64,000 bases of DNA from a virus. Location: the IMG/VR virus record IMGVR_UViG_3300035189_000005, positions 1-64,000 of that record; one strand, 5' to 3'. The notes beneath the pieces are model-generated. The model was not told the origin of the DNA, made no database searches, and was given only the letters and a program-made list of their open reading frames with translations. Shown here one piece after another: positions 2,856 through 21,084 of the stretch. Both the position numbers and the translations under genes were made by a program. Each line of letters begins with the position of its first letter. Within the stretch, counting starts at the first letter, position 1.

Positions 2856-5473
2856 GCTGCTTTCTTCTCTGCAAGTTTCGCCATGTGCTTCTCGACTCGA
2901 TCCAAGATCTCATCGTCATTCGCACCATTGGGTATCTCCATCTCTTCTGCCCAGGTTGGGTAGAACAGGGAGAGTTCACCTCCCAGGCCAACGTCCGGGT
3001 GGGCAATGTCTGGATGGTCTTGCCAGTTTACGGCTTTCACAATGATCCGGTGCAGGAACTGAACAGTCGGCATGTCATCCTTGACCAAGTAATACTGGGC
3101 ATCATGGATGTGGGCACATGGTCTAATATTCAAGCGGTACTCAGGGTGAGCCCGCACTTGCTCCATTACCTCACTGGCTGCCCGACTGTTGAGTAGGCAC
3201 CAGCTTTGTCCCAGGGCATTACCCGCTGTCCGTCCTTCAGCTTCTGCTTCGAACGGTGTTGCACGGATGCCACGGATTACCTGACCGAGTAATGGAGTAC
3301 GGACCCGCAGACCGAAGGCCGCAGTGATATACCCATCTCTCGATGCTTGATTCAGCTTGCCTTGTACCCAGTCGATGCTGACCTTGTAGAGCTGTTTGTA
3401 GCTGTTCTCTACCGCCTTGGCTTCTGTTTCGCTGAAGCCGCAGTTTTTCATCAAGGTGATGTACGTTCCCTGATAGGTCAGTGCAAACGTCGGTGCCTTG
3501 GACTTGCCACGAAGAGCTTCGTAGGGTCCACCCTTGTTTGCGATGGAGTTGATACTCTCCACGGTGTCCACGATGCCGATGCACTTTTCGGGCCAATAGC
3601 TGAATGTGCGTAGGCAGTGACCGTCGTAGCCATCGGTATAAACCTTCAGCTTGTTCGGGTCTTTCGTGGTGAGTGCACTGATTCGGTCTTCCAATGAAGC
3701 GAAGTCCAGGCCCATGAACAACCAGCCTGGTGGGGCTTGGATGCAGGACTTGATCAGCTTGGCGTACTTGCTGCTTGCTGGCAGGTTCTGCAAGTTCGGC
3801 TTCGATGACGACAGCCGACCAGATACCGTGCCTCCCAGGTTGAAGTTCCCGAACATGTAGTGCCAGCCTTCCGGGCCTTCCACTGACCGTTCCAGTGCTG
3901 GAATGAAGCTGGTCAGTATTTTGTCCACAGCCACGAAGTCCAGCATGGCATTGAGCAGGTCAATGATCAGTTGGTTCGTTGTGTGGTTACGCAGTGCCTT
4001 GAGCGTGTCACCATCAGTAGACGGTGCCTTGCTCTTGGTCTTCGACAGAATCGGCAATGCCAATACCTCGAACAACAGCTTTTGCACTTGAGGATCAGAG
4101 TTCGGGTTGAAGACTTCCTTGGCATCAGCCATGGATACCCGCTTGACCTTCAGCTCACTGTTTCGTTTGCGCACCCAGTCCTCATTGAGAGTGTGGGTGA
4201 ACTCCTGAACCAATGGGTTACCTTGGATCTTGGCTATTGCTGCGTTGAAGTCCGCCTCAAGAATCTTGCGAACCTCCTTCACCCGGACCATGTTCACCGG
4301 CAGGCCGGTCAATTGCATCTGGATGATGTCAGCAGTGGCTGGCTTGAAGAGCGTGGTATAGATCTCTTCTTGCTGATCCTTCTGCATGTTGGTGAAGTGC
4401 TTGCTGTGCACGAACCAAGTGGCAAGACTATCCACAAGGTTGTATTCCAACAGGACTGCTGGCTTGATCCGGGTGATGTCCTTGATTTCCTCTTGGGCAT
4501 AGTTCCCGGCGAACTCCTGGGATTGGTCCTTAAGGCCCAGCTTGTTTCCTGAACAGCTATTGGTTGCCAGATAGGTCACCAACTTCGTGCAGTCCCAGTT
4601 CTTGAGCATGACGCTCAGCCCTTCCAACAGTCCTTCGGTGTCGCCCGTATCCTTCATGAACAACTGATAGATCAGGGCATACACGTCGAACGCAATGTTG
4701 TGATAGATCTGCTTCTCTGCCATCTGACAGAAGAATTTCTTCAGCAGATCCCGCACTTCATAGTTTGGGACGTTGTAGCCGAATGGTGCTTCGGTTGCTC
4801 CATCGATTGGACGGTAGTCAACCAAGAAAGCAATCCCCTCGTGCTTGTTCCAGGCGAAACTGATTGAACCTATCCCACACTTGTCGTGCTTCAGGTCAAA
4901 GCCTTCGATGTCGATGGTTAATGGAACATTCATCGCCAACAGTTTGTCGAGCCAAACGGCAATTGCCTGGGTGCCCTCGGGGTACTCGGCAAAGTGAATG
5001 ATGCTCTTGCCGGGATCTTCATAGGTCCCCTCGGCACAAGTCCGCAGAGCACCCATGACCTGATCAATCTTGGCTTTCACCTTGATTGGGTCATAGAACA
5101 TCTGGCGATAGTTCGGGATGTAGAAGACCTTGAAGCTACCGAACTCACTATCACAGGCATAACCAAGAAACGGTTCTGCCTTGGCCTGTTTGGTCAGTGC
5201 TTTGAAATACTCACTGTCCGCACACATGACGAACTGACTGCTAGTATCTTTCAACACCGGTGCCAATACATCGGTGATGTACTGACGCATCATAGCCATT
5301 GGGGTTTTCTTCTTCCCTGGCTCTTGGAATAGATCCAGGAAGAGTACGGAGTCAAGATCAACCCCGTATGGATCGAGATACACTTTCCGCATTTCATCCT
5401 TCTTGAGCTGAGGCACAAGGAAGGTGATGGGGTAGGCCGATTGCTCGACCTGACTGTAGATCAGGTGATGCAT
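2852..5473 (-). CDS. DNA polymerase family A with 3'-5' exonuclease (N4 gp39-like)
   Basis: DIE exonuclease motif, TVSGRLSSSKPNLQN, DFASLE, R..SKAPTFALTYQG, HIHDA. Confidence 0.97.
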   Translation of the reverse strand: MHHLIYSQVEQSAYPITFLVPQLKKDEMRKVYLDPYGVDLDSVLFLDLFQEPGKKKTPMAMMRQYITDVLAPVLKDTSSQFVMCADSEYFKALTKQAKAEPFLGYACDSEFGSFKVFYIPNYRQMFYDPIKVKAKIDQVMGALRTCAEGTYEDPGKSIIHFAEYPEGTQAIAVWLDKLLAMNVPLTIDIEGFDLKHDKCGIGSISFAWNKHEGIAFLVDYRPIDGATEAPFGYNVPNYEVRDLLKKFFCQMAEKQIYHNIAFDVYALIYQLFMKDTGDTEGLLEGLSVMLKNWDCTKLVTYLATNSCSGNKLGLKDQSQEFAGNYAQEEIKDITRIKPAVLLEYNLVDSLATWFVHSKHFTNMQKDQQEEIYTTLFKPATADIIQMQLTGLPVNMVRVKEVRKILEADFNAAIAKIQGNPLVQEFTHTLNEDWVRKRNSELKVKRVSMADAKEVFNPNSDPQVQKLLFEVLALPILSKTKSKAPSTDGDTLKALRNHTTNQLIIDLLNAMLDFVAVDKILTSFIPALERSVEGPEGWHYMFGNFNLGGTVSGRLSSSKPNLQNLPASSKYAKLIKSCIQAPPGWLFMGLDFASLEDRISALTTKDPNKLKVYTDGYDGHCLRTFSYWPEKCIGIVDTVESINSIANKGGPYEALRGKSKAPTFALTYQGTYITLMKNCGFSETEAKAVENSYKQLYKVSIDWVQGKLNQASRDGYITAAFGLRVRTPLLGQVIRGIRATPFEAEAEGRTAGNALGQSWCLLNSRAASEVMEQVRAHPEYRLNIRPCAHIHDAQYYLVKDDMPTVQFLHRIIVKAVNWQDHPDIAHPDVGLGGELSLFYPTWAEEMEIPNGANDDEILDRVEKHMAKLAEKKAA

Positions 5474-6010: not shown

Positions 6011-7315
6011 TTACTCCGCAGGGATGATCCAACCGAACTTGCTTACCAGTTCGCCATGCAGTGCAACTCGTACACGAGCACGGGACACGGCCACGTAAAT
6101 CAAACGTGCAGCTTGCTCCGGGTCACGGCAGGTCGAAATATCCGACAAGTCGATGTACACGGTGTCATGGCTGCTGCCTTGGGCCTTGTAACTGGTGCAG
6201 GCATCACGCTGACGCAGATCTGGATACGTGTTCTTCAGATAGAAGTAACGGTTCCAGTTACGCATCTTGGCGTAATACTTGATCAGTTTGTCGAAGTGGT
6301 CACGATCAACAGGAACTGGGATACCTGCATACAACTCACCCAGTTTGTTTTCCAACGTGGCGAACCGAACTTCTAATTCCACGTTGTCGTCGATCTCATC
6401 CATCGACGAAGTGCGATCCAGATCAAAGATCCGAACTTCCTCTTCGACGGACAGACGCCCACCTTTCACTTGAAGGGCATTGTTGCTGATCAGCCATTCA
6501 CCCTTCTGGAAGTCTTCCGGCAGGTTACGCACCTGACGAATGAAGGCGTTGTAATCCAGCACCCTTTGGTTCGTGTAGGTGATGATCCGGTTGTTGTGAC
6601 CAGGATCGGCGAAGTTGGCGATGATCTCTGCTTCGAACTCTTCGTCGGTCAGGTGATCGATGATGCCCGGAACCAACTGGATACCAGTGAACTCCCCGGT
6701 CTCCACCGTGCGACGGAACTGTTTGTTCAGCTCGTGCAGGGCAGGAACGTTGGTCCGCATTGGTTCAGTCAGTTCGTAGAACTTGATGCCTTCGGTGTAG
6801 ATGACCGAGATCTTTTCCTTCACCGGGGCCAACTGACAGTGGTCACCGACGAATACCACTTTGCAGTTCAGCGTGCCTTCACGGATGAACTTACGCAGTG
6901 ATTTGTCGATCATGGAGCACTCATCGATAAAGATGATGAGGTTCTCATGGACCATCCACTGTTTGGTCTTGGTGATCTCCTGACGACCGGTTGCATAGTC
7001 ATCAGTCACCTTGAGGTTGAAGAAGCTGTGTACCGTCGAGACACTCCGACCAGTAGACAGGTGCAGTACCTCGGCAGCCTTGTTCGTGGTTGCCGTCATG
7101 ATGACGCCACGGTAAAGCGGCTTGATACCGGCCAGCTCACAGGCCCCTTCGTATTGCGGCATGATCTCATCGATCATGTGGCCCATCAGGAAGGTCTTGC
7201 CTACCCCACCTGGGCCAGAGATGTTCAGTTCTTTTTCATCACTGAACAGGAATTCAAAGAATCCCACGGAAGCCAGAGTCTGGCCCTCGTTCAGCTTAGA
7301 TGGTGCAGTTTCCAT
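6011..7315 (-). CDS. SF1B (Dda/RecD-like) DNA helicase
   Basis: GPGGVGKT, ATTNKAA, IDECSM, GDHCQLAPV, YKAQGSS, YVAVSRAR. Confidence 0.95.
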   Translation of the reverse strand: METAPSKLNEGQTLASVGFFEFLFSDEKELNISGPGGVGKTFLMGHMIDEIMPQYEGACELAGIKPLYRGVIMTATTNKAAEVLHLSTGRSVSTVHSFFNLKVTDDYATGRQEITKTKQWMVHENLIIFIDECSMIDKSLRKFIREGTLNCKVVFVGDHCQLAPVKEKISVIYTEGIKFYELTEPMRTNVPALHELNKQFRRTVETGEFTGIQLVPGIIDHLTDEEFEAEIIANFADPGHNNRIITYTNQRVLDYNAFIRQVRNLPEDFQKGEWLISNNALQVKGGRLSVEEEVRIFDLDRTSSMDEIDDNVELEVRFATLENKLGELYAGIPVPVDRDHFDKLIKYYAKMRNWNRYFYLKNTYPDLRQRDACTSYKAQGSSHDTVYIDLSDISTCRDPEQAARLIYVAVSRARVRVALHGELVSKFGWIIPAE

Positions 7316-17871: not shown

Positions 17872-17900
17872 AATAAAAAGAGGCCCACCGAAGTGGGCCT
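17872..17900 (-). terminator. intrinsic terminator closing the ncRNA array
   Basis: AGGCCCAC-TTCG-GTGGGCCT-CTTTTTATT on the minus strand. Confidence 0.85.
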
Positions 17901-17917: not shown

Positions 17918-18089
17918 CGGTGTATTGGTTGGATAACTTCACATTACGGAATCGAACCGTAGTTTCCAGTGCTTCGCTCTCAGAGGCCCTAACCTTACTC
18001 GCCAATATCAGCTTTCCTGGTGAGAACATGTAACTACTGGCTGTCGTACTTGCCACTATACGAATGAAAAGTTACCCACCAATACACCG
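17918..18089 (-). ncRNA. tRNA-like RNA D: extended acceptor helix, D arm, T arm, anticodon arm replaced by insert
   Basis: D arm GTAT-AGTGGCAA-GTAC (18046-18061), T arm TACGG-TTCGATT-CCGTA (17945-17961), terminal helix CGGTGTATTGGTGGGTAAC/GTTATCCA(A)CCAATACACCG. Confidence 0.75.
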
Positions 18090-18156
18090 TTGCTGCTAGT
18101 CCCCGGTGCACTGGGTACGTCAATTAAAGCCCGGACGCACACGGTCTATTCTTTTA

Positions 18157-18303
18157 ATGCATTGGTTGGATGTCCTAACGGGCAATCTTCGTGCGTTGAC
18201 TGGTAGCTAAACACAAGTCTTCACCTGCGCCTATTGAACTATTCAATCCCCCAGAGAGCTTTCCCTATCCTTGGCCTTCGGACCAGGACATCCACCAATG
18301 CAT
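18157..18303 (-). ncRNA. structured RNA C with the same terminal bulged helix, no tRNA arms
   Basis: ATGCATTGGTGGATGTCCT/AGGACATCCA(A)CCAATGCAT encloses several short hairpins. Confidence 0.65.
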
Positions 18304-18375
18304 CCTCTTCAAAGGACACATTGGGTGAAACGTGAATGCTGAGCGGTTACATGTGGCAACGGCACAGCGCCTTGT

Positions 18376-18384
18376 CTAATACAT
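18376..18384 (-). other. Met-Tyr-stop minigene
   Basis: GAACCAAAGGAGA-ATCGCT-ATG TAT TAG; same SD context as real genes of this phage. Confidence 0.4.
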
Positions 18385-18440
18385 AGCGATTCTCCTTTGG
18401 TTCAACACTTGGAAGGAAGTGTCCACCTATTTGATTGGGC

Positions 18441-18521
18441 GGGATCTGTCGCATTGGCACAAGGGCCCCACTGCGAAATGTTGCGGCAAGATTGCAGGTG
18501 ATGCCTCATCAACCAGATCCC
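18441..18521 (-). ncRNA. structured RNA element E
   Basis: GGGATCTG/CAGATCCC closing stem with nested GGCAT/GTGCC and CTGC/GCAG stems; strand inferred from context. Confidence 0.4.
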
Positions 18522-18530
18522 ATAAACTAA

Positions 18531-18653
18531 GAGGGGGAGTAGGGAGTCGAACCCCACTTCCCTGGCCGCTAAGCCAGCTTAAATGCATAAGTCAACCAGA
18601 CAGCTACTTCCAGACTATCCATGGTTCGTCTGGACCTCGCTTGCATTCCCCCC
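18531..18653 (-). ncRNA. tRNA-like RNA B: acceptor stem, T arm and variable-arm-like hairpin, non-canonical D/anticodon region
   Basis: GGGGGGA/TCCCCCT, GTGGGG-TTCGACT-CCCTAC, CTGGC/GCCAG and TCCAGAC/GTCTGGA stems. Confidence 0.65.
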
Positions 18654-18659
18654 ATAAAA

Positions 18660-18858
18660 CTGGCATTGGATGGATGCCCTCTGTTGCTGGTATCGAACCA
18701 GCGTCTCATATGCTCACGACAGTTCTTCCAGAGCCTGTGCGATCTCTTACCTCAACGGAACCCGTCTTCAAGTACCTACCACAAGTTGCAACTGCCTAGT
18801 GTGAGCGTGAATCAGCGTCCTACCTTTGGACGATACAGAAGACATCCACCAATGCCAG
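18660..18858 (-). ncRNA. tRNA-like RNA A: extended acceptor helix, D arm, T arm, long rod in place of anticodon arm
   Basis: D arm GTCC-AAAGGTA-GGAC (18817-18831), T arm GCTGG-TTCGATA-CCAGC (18686-18702), terminal helix CTGGCATTGGTGGATGTC/GGCATCCA(T)CCAATGCCAG. Confidence 0.75.
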
Positions 18859-18915
18859 CTTGCTGCATTGTAGCTGCCGCTGGCATTGGGATTTACTGTT
18901 TACTCAGGGCGATGA

Positions 18916-19938: not shown

Positions 19939-21084
19939 TCAGTTCCTGATGTAGATGACTTCGCCATATGTAGGCACATGCCCACCACCACGGCCAATCC
20001 TGATCCAAATGATGGGTACGTGCACTGTAGGTCGCACCATTGGTGTGACTTCCAGATCCGAGAAGATGATAGCAGCCGTTGGCTGGTGTTTTTCTATATG
20101 CTCACGCACACACACCAGCGATGTACCGCTGCCATGAGCATCAGTCACCACATCAAAGGAATCACTTTCCTCGAAGGTCTTCTCATCCATGATCCGGGTA
20201 TCGAACTGAACGAGGGTCAACTTCCGTGGATTGAATGTCTCCTTGATGTACTTCACCTCCGAGTTAAAGCGTAAACGCTCCTGGGCGGTGATGGATGCAG
20301 ACACATCAAGGTAGTAGATCAGGTGATCCAATCGGCCCTCTTCCTCGTAGGTCGATGGCAGATACATATTCGTGTAGCGGCGATTTGGACGAGCCCAAGT
20401 GTAGGCAATCTCGGCCAGATCACTGAAGAACTTGTACAGCAGGCCTTCCCACGGAACCACGGGAGTCAGGAACTTCTTGATGATCCCTTTGGTTCCACCA
20501 GGGACGGTGCCAGCTTGCCCACTGGCCTCGGCTGCTTGCACAGCTTTGACCACGTTGGCTATGCCCTTCAGAATGGTTTCTTCCGTTGGGTCACGCATAT
20601 CACCTTTACCCGCACCGGGTACACCCCAGGTAGGCTTGGGCTTGGCACCGCTATTGATGAGCAGGTCGTAGATGTCCTCTTCGACCATCCTCCCGCCTTT
20701 GTCCAGATCTGGATTAAGGCAGCACCACTCGATACCTTCGAAGGTATAGCCTTCCTTCTTCAGATCGTTGTTGATGCGATAGTCCGCTGCTTGGTTCCAG
20801 ATCTCTGGATCACGATTGCCACGACGGATCATATGCAACAGGCCTGGATGCCACAGCTCATGGGCCAGCACTGTTTTACGAGTGGCCGGCTTGAGTGACA
20901 GGAACCAATGGGGATTCCACCAGAGACTGACCCCATCGGTTTCAGCGGTTTGCACCGTCTCATCCCAGATGAATTCCAGGCTGCACATCAATGATCCAAG
21001 GAAAGCACCAGTGCCTCCGATGAACATCTGAGCCTTGGTCTTGTTGAGTTCCTCATTGAGAAACTGTTCGTCAATCTCTTGCAT
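19939..21084 (-). CDS. DUF2201-type metallopeptidase plus vWA-like protein (N4 gp25-like)
   Basis: TAETDG, HELWH (HExxH), WNQAADYRIN, DVSAS MIDAS-like motif. Confidence 0.85.
   Translation of the reverse strand: MQEIDEQFLNEELNKTKAQMFIGGTGAFLGSLMCSLEFIWDETVQTAETDGVSLWWNPHWFLSLKPATRKTVLAHELWHPGLLHMIRRGNRDPEIWNQAADYRINNDLKKEGYTFEGIEWCCLNPDLDKGGRMVEEDIYDLLINSGAKPKPTWGVPGAGKGDMRDPTEETILKGIANVVKAVQAAEASGQAGTVPGGTKGIIKKFLTPVVPWEGLLYKFFSDLAEIAYTWARPNRRYTNMYLPSTYEEEGRLDHLIYYLDVSASITAQERLRFNSEVKYIKETFNPRKLTLVQFDTRIMDEKTFEESDSFDVVTDAHGSGTSLVCVREHIEKHQPTAAIIFSDLEVTPMVRPTVHVPIIWIRIGRGGGHVPTYGEVIYIRN

Follow-up and report, generated by a model that had tools for sequence, protein, structure and literature searches.

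A shared closing helix around unrelated RNAs of N4-like phages and its possible role as a leader-trailer-type clamp

A gene-free array of predicted structured RNAs lies on the minus strand (18861 down to 17881) of IMG/VR virus record IMGVR_UViG_3300035189_000005, and it raises the question of why three of these RNAs, called A, C and D here, end in nearly the same helix. In each of them the paired ends form 7 base pairs (bp), one unpaired base on the 3' strand and 8 further bp. The record has 74,181 bp; the window, meaning the whole stretch of DNA analysed here, is its first 64 kilobases (kb), and coordinates without a contig name refer to it. The same helix was found around unrelated RNAs in other N4-like phages, and our tentative reading, which we hold with less than even confidence, is that it may be a leader-trailer-type three-strand clamp that packages stable non-coding RNAs within a long transcript in this phage clade. 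The closing helices of the three elements are made up as follows:

18855-18663, minus strand: element A, with closing arms 18855-18841 and 18678-18663 and a bulged U at 18670
18841-18861, minus strand: 5' arm of A, consisting of an outer extension, GCAUUGG (18855-18849) and the inner strand UGGAUGUC (18848-18841)
18657-18678, minus strand: 3' arm of A, consisting of GGCAUCCA, the bulged U (18670), CCAAUGC and an outer extension
18301-18159, minus strand: element C, with a bulged A at 18166 or 18167
18287-18301, minus strand: 5' arm of C, GCAUUGG-UGGAUGUC, the same as that of A
18159-18174, minus strand: 3' arm of C, GACAUCCA-A-CCAAUGC
18085-17922, minus strand: element D, with a bulged A at 17929 or 17930
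18071-18085, minus strand: 5' arm of D, GUAUUGG-UGGGUAAC
17922-17937, minus strand: 3' arm of D, GUUAUCCA-A-CCAAUAC

These arms had been quoted for A, C and D in an original prediction, and they are present on the minus strand exactly as given there. The closing stem was recovered in the fold of each RNA, with z-scores of -5.5 for A, -4.4 for C and -4.8 for D, and none of 200 shuffled sequences folded as well as A, C or D. Four helix positions distinguish D from A and C, and three of these four changes are compensatory (C-G to U-A, G-C to A-U, and U-A to A-U), in agreement with the prediction that flanking pairs vary yet stay complementary. A fixed register of the bulge relative to the body of A and D had also been described; the corresponding 35-nucleotide (nt) pattern, GGTTCGA-N17-ATCCA-N-CCAAT, matches the window only twice, at A and at D, where 0.00 matches are expected by chance. 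The closing helix is often longer than first noted, and A has 13 outer pairs.

A protein encoded near the array places the phage among relatives. The gene at 19939-21084 (minus strand) encodes a DUF2201 metallopeptidase/VWA protein with 49.6% identity to gp25 of phage N4 and 54% identity to homologues of the Pseudomonas putida phages Ebordelon, Holyagarpour and Zuri, the last of which is classed in Schitoviridae. A peat metagenome (DNA) is the sole sequencing run found with this stretch and is probably its source. By this homology, and with a peat metagenome as the only run with the stretch, the phage is an uncultured N4-like phage. The record carries 127-bp direct terminal repeats at its ends and one open reading frame (ORF) of 3,473 codons.

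The region downstream of the gp25 homologue was compared in cultured phages and in 80 metagenome contigs; the closest protein relatives (58-59% identity) lie outside this set of genomes. Loci were scanned for AUUGG followed by CCAAU with flanking complementarity, and matches were selected for at least 7 inner and at least 2 outer pairs. This gave 13 non-redundant elements in 11 phage genomes or contigs, and the same loci shuffled in 20 rounds gave 0-1 matches per round. Apart from A, C and D, the elements are those of phages Zuri (= Holyagarpour), Ebordelon, Meara and Arace01, of Erwinia phage UCB24, and of contigs L182 (= L183), L185, L194, L207 (= L208) and L210. All 13 lie on the gene-sense strand downstream of an N4 gp25-like gene. 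No module was found by the same scan in phage N4 or in phage CL.

Conservation within the module is uneven. The 5-bp core AUUGG/CCAAU is invariant (13/13), and the helix as a whole measures 17-28 bp. At inner positions 1-10 every cell is paired (130/130), with 2-5 pair types per position, and outer positions 1-6 are mostly paired, with 3-4 pair types; selection used the first 7 inner and 2 outer pairs, which leaves just the other positions and the shuffle control as independent evidence. RNAalifold, applied to six RNAs of the type we call M, independently returned the same helix and bulge, with compensatory changes in 15 of 42 predicted pairs. G-U pairs are numerous in the helices; read on the other strand they would be A-C mismatches, and such frequent one-strand G-U pairing points to an RNA structure of the sense strand. 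The shared signal proposed from the three RNAs of the window is thus borne out, and as a selected one, by the same module, with invariant core and covarying flanks, around unrelated RNAs in 13 elements, and the suggested search of other phages found it in Pseudomonas and Erwinia phages and in contigs. Judged from these comparisons, the best reading of the module would be a reusable RNA packaging and processing unit, not a chance repeat.

Four exact-pattern scans of IMG/VR, made with a 14-mer from the 5' arm, a 17-mer from the C core, the register from T loop to CCAAU and a T-arm pattern of the M type, gave only chance or unrelated matches, apart from Zuri. A generic search for three-strand modules with other cores gave scattered matches, probably due to chance. 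In the arms of A and C, GGAUGU was considered as a CsrA-like motif and rejected, the sequence of the inner helix not being conserved in relatives.

A third strand belongs to the module. Upstream of all 13 elements lies a copy of the 3'-arm sequence, C-CCA(A/G)UG, which we call the decoy and which pairs with the 5' arm over 7-16 bp, across loops of 4-26 nt. The C in front of it is invariant and cannot pair with the first inner base in any of the 13 elements, so the decoy hairpin always ends at the junction between outer and inner helix. The decoy covaries with the arm; in L210, for example, CCAAUCAG pairs with CUGAUUGG. In the window the decoys are the following:

18879-18889, minus strand: decoy (U strand) of A, CCAAUGCCAGC, forming 11 bp with the outer 5' arm across a 19-nt loop, preceded by an unpaired C
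18312-18324, minus strand: decoy (U strand) of C, CCAAUGUGUCCUU, forming 13 bp across a 4-nt loop
18104-18114, minus strand: decoy (U strand) of D, CCAGUGCACCG, forming 11 bp, including G-U, across a 14-nt loop

Hairpins as long as these were reached by 1 of 500 shuffled sequences for A, by 0 of 500 for C and by 6 of 500 for D. In the 74-kb genome, decoy-type hairpins occur at A, C and D only, so they are not general promoters. Constrained folding placed the closed state, formed with the 3' arm, 0.1-10 kcal/mol below the decoy state in 13 of 13 elements. Because the closed state is favoured in all of them, the decoy hairpin can only be transient and cotranscriptional.

The base just 5' of CCAAU is unpaired in 11 of the 13 elements. 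It is a bulged A in seven, a bulged U in one (A of this phage), part of a U-U mismatch in two (Meara and UCB24) and part of an A-C mismatch in one (L182), and the junction is perfectly paired in the remaining two (Zuri/Holyagarpour and Ebordelon). The original prediction had described both core and bulge as kept in A, C and D. Across the 13 elements the core is kept (13/13); the bulge is frequent but not universal, with 11 of 13 junctions irregular. The doubled CCA-W-CCA that had been proposed as the shared signature proved peculiar to this phage, as relatives keep only the second CCA, within CCAAU. Cleavage at the bulge had been suggested to leave a U-CCA 3' end on an 11-bp stem; this idea lost its support because the pre-bulge CCA is specific to this phage and absent in every relative. 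A bulge-helix-bulge motif (two 3-nt bulges on opposite strands, 4 bp apart) was not found at the junction, which is a single 1-nt bulge, a 1x1 mismatch or neither. Membership among archaeal bulge-helix-bulge splicing or circularisation sites failed on this bulge pattern, and the phage has no RtcB gene.

The RNAs enclosed by the module, called cargoes here, differ among elements. Those of the window, together with the two other RNAs of the same array, are:

18679-18840, minus strand: cargo of A, a tRNA-like body by its fold and by relaxed ARAGORN
18175-18286, minus strand: cargo of C, not tRNA-like
17938-18070, minus strand: cargo of D, a tRNA-like body by its fold and by relaxed ARAGORN
18400-18653, minus strand: RNAs B and X, between A and C, with closing stems other than AUUGG/CCAAU

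Both A and D have an acceptor-like stem that stacks on the closing helix, a D arm with a GG loop, a canonical T arm, and a branched rod of 65-105 nt in place of the anticodon arm of a transfer RNA (tRNA). In A, a 7-bp acceptor-like stem is coaxial with the closing helix, the D-arm loop is AAAGGUA, the T arm is GCUGG-UUCGAUA-CCAGC, and the branched rod has about 105 nt. In D, the acceptor-like stem has one U-U mismatch, the D-arm loop contains AGUGG, a CCAGU/ACUGG stem surrounds a 65-nt branched insert, and the T arm is ACGG-UUCGAUU-CCGU. Relaxed ARAGORN (80% of threshold, introns allowed) drew A as a Val(cac)-like cloverleaf with an 88-nt insert and D as a Phe(gaa)-like cloverleaf with a 58-nt insert and without U33. 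ARAGORN reported 0 tRNA genes in the region, both at default settings and with introns allowed, and Rfam reported no tRNA there. Canonical tRNA membership of A and D was rejected, as the only calls are below threshold and carry inserts of 58 and 88 nt. Default ARAGORN and Rfam (at the gathering threshold and at E up to 10) found nothing at all in the array region, and no match to the 1-kb array as a whole was returned by blastn from 50,697 phage records.

The cargo of C contains conserved blocks, UAGGGAAAGCUCUCUGGGG and GCACGAAGAUUGCCCGU, in common with RNAs of Pseudomonas phages Zuri, Holyagarpour and Meara and of contig L194. At least five unrelated cargoes occur within the module, namely the two tRNA-like bodies, the C type, the Ebordelon type, the M type and a 72-nt hairpin. 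Conversely, the C-type cargo of Meara and L194 is closed by another, equally long helix, GCCUUUC...GAAAGGC. Cargo and clamp are separable, because unrelated cargoes sit in the same module and the C cargo also sits in a different helix. This second type of clamp, found at L179:8909-9028 (Meara) and L194:4825-4932, is conserved and consists of about 21 bp between GCCUUUC-NAG-RUGACACG and its complement.

The setting of the array bears on how these RNAs would be made. Two small paralogous ORFs on the minus strand, of 77 amino acids (19402-19169) and 64 amino acids (19110-18916), sit upstream of it. A scan for sigma-70-type promoter-like sites found none within the array, and the single strong terminator in this context is placed after D:

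17881-17900, minus strand: intrinsic terminator with an 8-bp GC-rich stem followed by a U run, closing the array

The phage genome has no gene for RNase III, RtcB or a CCA-adding enzyme, so host enzymes would serve. RNase III-type processing, with a clamping role for the helix, is the leading candidate for what the module may do. Read 5' to 3', an element consists of the decoy, a short loop, the 5' arm ending in AUUGG, the inner strand, the cargo, the complementary inner strand, usually one unpaired base, and the 3' arm, which begins with CCAAU. During transcription of the cargo the decoy would hold the 5' arm in a hairpin and thereby keep it from mispairing with the cargo. Once the 3' arm has been made, the inner helix would form and the 3' arm would displace the decoy, which may give a leader-trailer helix of 17-28 bp joining both ends of the RNA. 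This helix could mark the unit that host RNases, both double-strand and single-strand ones, would cut out of the polycistronic transcript, with RNase III as the prime candidate, and exonucleases would be held off by the paired ends of the released RNA. Both alternative pairings have their boundary at the junction, seven bp above the base of the helix, and this would be the most likely point of cleavage or recognition. The module itself, with its conservation, covariation, decoy strand and energetics, is what the comparisons show; the folding order, the nucleases and the mature ends are what we infer.

Several points weigh against the leader-trailer reading. Cleavage and folding order are deduced from sequence and calculated energies, the pairing statistic is partly built in by the selection, and the 13 elements, found in phages that are related to one another, count as less than fully independent. 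The unpaired junction base appears not to be essential, because Zuri/Holyagarpour and Ebordelon do without it. RNase III is not known to need a specific sequence, and the invariant core therefore has to be accounted for in some further way, for example by a sequence-specific factor, or by common ancestry together with the threefold constraint that comes with three strands. A bolder version, which we regard as rather improbable, is a previously undescribed bistable three-strand "cassette holder" in which a dedicated factor, perhaps a nuclease, ligase or tRNA-end enzyme, would recognise the CCAAU/AUUGG core and the junction base, and which would display exchangeable tRNA mimics or other RNAs acting on host translation or anti-phage defence.

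RNase III cuts the 25-40-bp leader-trailer helices of ribosomal RNA (rRNA), in which covarying pairs surround a near-invariant box (PMC10250234). The phage module resembles them in that flanking complements form a long covarying helix with a near-invariant block and irregularities (PMC10250234), and in the polycistronic setting, proposed for the phage, of the 16S and 23S rRNA helices in rrn operons. The features by which such a helix can be recognised, namely a length of about 17-20 bp or more, a position flanking a stable RNA and support from covariation, are all present. Unlike the rRNA helices, the phage helix has 17-28 bp around a cargo of 60-190 nt, is reused around unrelated RNAs and has a dedicated upstream decoy, and its cleavage by RNase III is a proposal. 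In the Escherichia coli signal recognition particle (4.5S) RNA, the 3' end displaces a 5' hairpin to give the closing helix (10.1101/379222). An early 5' hairpin displaced by the 3' end is also what sequence and energies suggest for the phage RNAs, with the difference that the early hairpin of the former is made of mature-helix sequence, whereas the phages use a separate conserved decoy outside the RNA body.

Y RNAs such as Yrn1 of Deinococcus radiodurans and YrlA/YrlB of Salmonella (PMC4201824; RF02553) are similar to the phage RNAs in having paired 5' and 3' ends with a conserved site and a tRNA-like module, and in being arrayed and occurring in phages. The combination of a long stem with tRNA-like D and T arms is present in A and D, which follow the Yrn1-type order of stem, D arm, anticodon-like arm and T arm, and absent from C and from several cargoes of relatives. 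Unlike Y RNAs, the phage RNAs have the core AUUGG/CCAAU, no GNCGAA in the stem and several cargoes that are not tRNA-like, and they are not accompanied by a Ro60 gene. The complete 74-kb phage gave no match to a TROVE (Ro60/Rsr) gene in a search to which control genomes responded, although a Ro60 could still come from the host, and the YrlA family RF02553 of Rfam had no match on the region (E up to 10) or in the whole phage. Y RNA membership thus failed on three of four features: the Ro60 gene, the stem motif and the RF02553 match. Element C carries CUGGUCCGAAGG just inside the helix (18274-18285, minus strand), which we take to be identical to the Ro60-contacting stretch of human Y1 RNA. This likeness is probably a coincidence, because the stretch is not conserved in the homologues of Zuri, Meara and L194. 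Species 1 and 2 of phage T4 (rnaC and rnaD) and the tRNA-like RNAs of phage T5 are unexplained, oversized tRNA look-alikes of phage RNA clusters that are matured by the host. To our knowledge they have no sequence relation to the RNAs described here, and we know of no closing module or decoy that they share with them.

Because RNase III by itself leaves the invariant core unexplained, a sequence-specific reader stays a serious rival, if an unlikely one. The helix would then be a handle on which the core and the adjacent unpaired base dock a specific host or phage protein, with the cargo as effector or decoy, much as the Ro60 site lies in the closing stem of Y RNAs. The strict conservation of the 5-bp core among covarying neighbours speaks for such a handle, as do the unpaired base beside the core in 11 of 13 elements and a layout of one handle with many tops like that of Y RNA families (PMC4201824). 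A phage-encoded candidate partner would be the conserved family of small beta-rich proteins, to which the 64- and 77-amino-acid paralogues belong and which is encoded directly upstream of the RNA arrays in most relatives. Its AlphaFold model has a predicted local distance difference test (pLDDT) score of 89.6 and shows five strands and a C-terminal helix; its fold matches are weak (RemA and PH-like folds, E >= 0.05), and none is to an RNA-binding protein. The small protein also occurs without the RNAs (L224, L230 and L256) and the RNAs without the small protein (Zuri group), and it was dropped as a helix partner on this imperfect co-occurrence and the weak fold matches. Against the Y RNA analogy, the phage has neither a TROVE/Ro60 gene nor a YrlA match and the helix no GNCGAA/GGUCCGA motif. 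Improbable, in our judgement, yet likewise a serious rival, is a masked tRNA-type 3' end, in which the unpaired base and CCA would be a discriminator-CCA terminus held in duplex by a UGG leader, and the decoy, which also contains CCAAU, would free this end for RNase P, CCA-repair or charging enzymes. The junction does look like the end of a precursor tRNA, since CCA is invariant (13/13) and preceded by an unpaired base, mostly A, in 11 elements; D and T arms are intact in the two tRNA-like cargoes, and the decoy is the 3'-arm sequence stopping exactly at the junction. Bacterial RNase P favours a U at -1 followed by a G at +1. Here the -1 base is G in 13 of 13 elements and the helix begins with U, A or C and never with G, the opposite of this preference. 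In addition, A and D have 20 bp and not 12 between T loop and junction, the AU after CCA is conserved as strongly as CCA itself, and the closed state is thermodynamically favoured.

Two further explanations fare worse. N4-like phages use DNA hairpin promoters with a short stem and a 3-4-nt loop upstream of many transcription units (PMC9163698), and the arms of the module are inverted repeats, just as decoy and 3' arm are direct repeats. An element acting as DNA, whether an N4-type hairpin promoter, a site of recombination or the repeats at the ends of a small mobile element, is nevertheless very improbable: the arms are 110-190 nt apart, G-U is tolerated on one strand only, and the inner helix covaries without sequence conservation. 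Membership among N4-type hairpin promoters failed on the loops, of 4-26 nt against 3-4 nt in the known promoters, and on the occurrence of the hairpins at just the three RNA elements A, C and D in 74 kb. We give the least credit of all to a reading of A and D as tRNA genes interrupted by an insert, one Val(CAC)-like and the other Phe(GAA)-like, which would decode after splicing and whose closing helix would be a precursor stem. It can draw on the cloverleaves of relaxed ARAGORN, in which A has U33, anticodon CAC and a purine at 37. Neither ARAGORN at default nor Rfam makes such a call, however; D lacks U33, and its insert precedes the anticodon. Group I introns are much larger than these inserts, the helix runs unbroken across the junctions, which show no bulge-helix-bulge or splice signals, and the same module encloses cargoes that are not tRNA-like.

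N4-like phages have been studied mainly for their transcription, and their non-coding RNAs are essentially uncharted. None of the RNAs described here is annotated or present in Rfam. The module offers a searchable signature (decoy strand, AUUGG, helix, unpaired base, CCAAU) that marks unannotated structured-RNA genes in the cultured phages Zuri, Holyagarpour, Ebordelon, Meara, Arace01 and UCB24, which makes this biology directly testable in tractable hosts. If the 5' arm does pair with the decoy before the 3' arm displaces it, the module would be a natural, conserved case of programmed cotranscriptional strand displacement and a ready scaffold for stable RNA expression in bacteria. If a specific factor reads the core, a new phage RNA-protein system would be at hand.

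Other features of the array and its syntenic sites were noted. RNA B (about 18531-18653, minus strand) combines an acceptor-like stem of 7 bp (GGGGGGA/UCCCCCU) and a T arm with a long hairpin in place of the D arm and a GCUGGCUUAGCGGCCAG hairpin, and relaxed ARAGORN called it "His(atg)"; a hairpin and T arm similar to those of B follow the C-type RNA of Zuri (L129, about 7150-7250). RNA X (about 18400-18530, minus strand) is conserved at L185:7261-7396 and in Meara at L179:7402-7541. It ends in a hairpin and a Shine-Dalgarno sequence, which in Zuri precedes a real gene; here only ATG-TAT-TAG follows, as if RNAs C and D had replaced the downstream gene. A tRNA look-alike at L210:5440-5560 has a canonical D arm (AGCUCAGUUGGUUAGAGC), a T arm and a 42-nt loop at the place of the anticodon loop. 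At the syntenic site L118:7258-7631, ordinary tRNA-Arg and tRNA-Leu genes are present instead.

In Zuri, Ebordelon, Arace01 and L207, the dCTP deaminase gene and the RNA array are separated by a small, unannotated ORF rich in cysteine (zinc-ribbon-like). Its positions include:

L129:6666-6896: cysteine-rich ORF
L180:6540-6869: cysteine-rich ORF
L207:4484-4750: cysteine-rich ORF

In the whole genome, 4.5 copies of the heptamer GAACCAA are expected per strand, but the plus strand has 50 and the minus strand 58. It is spread evenly regardless of gene orientation, often as GGAACCAATGG (for example at window positions 4207, 5621, 18403 on the minus strand and 34321), and it is enriched 4-16-fold in the loci of other N4-like phages, N4 included. 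From this distribution, GAACCAA looks like a family motif at the level of DNA.

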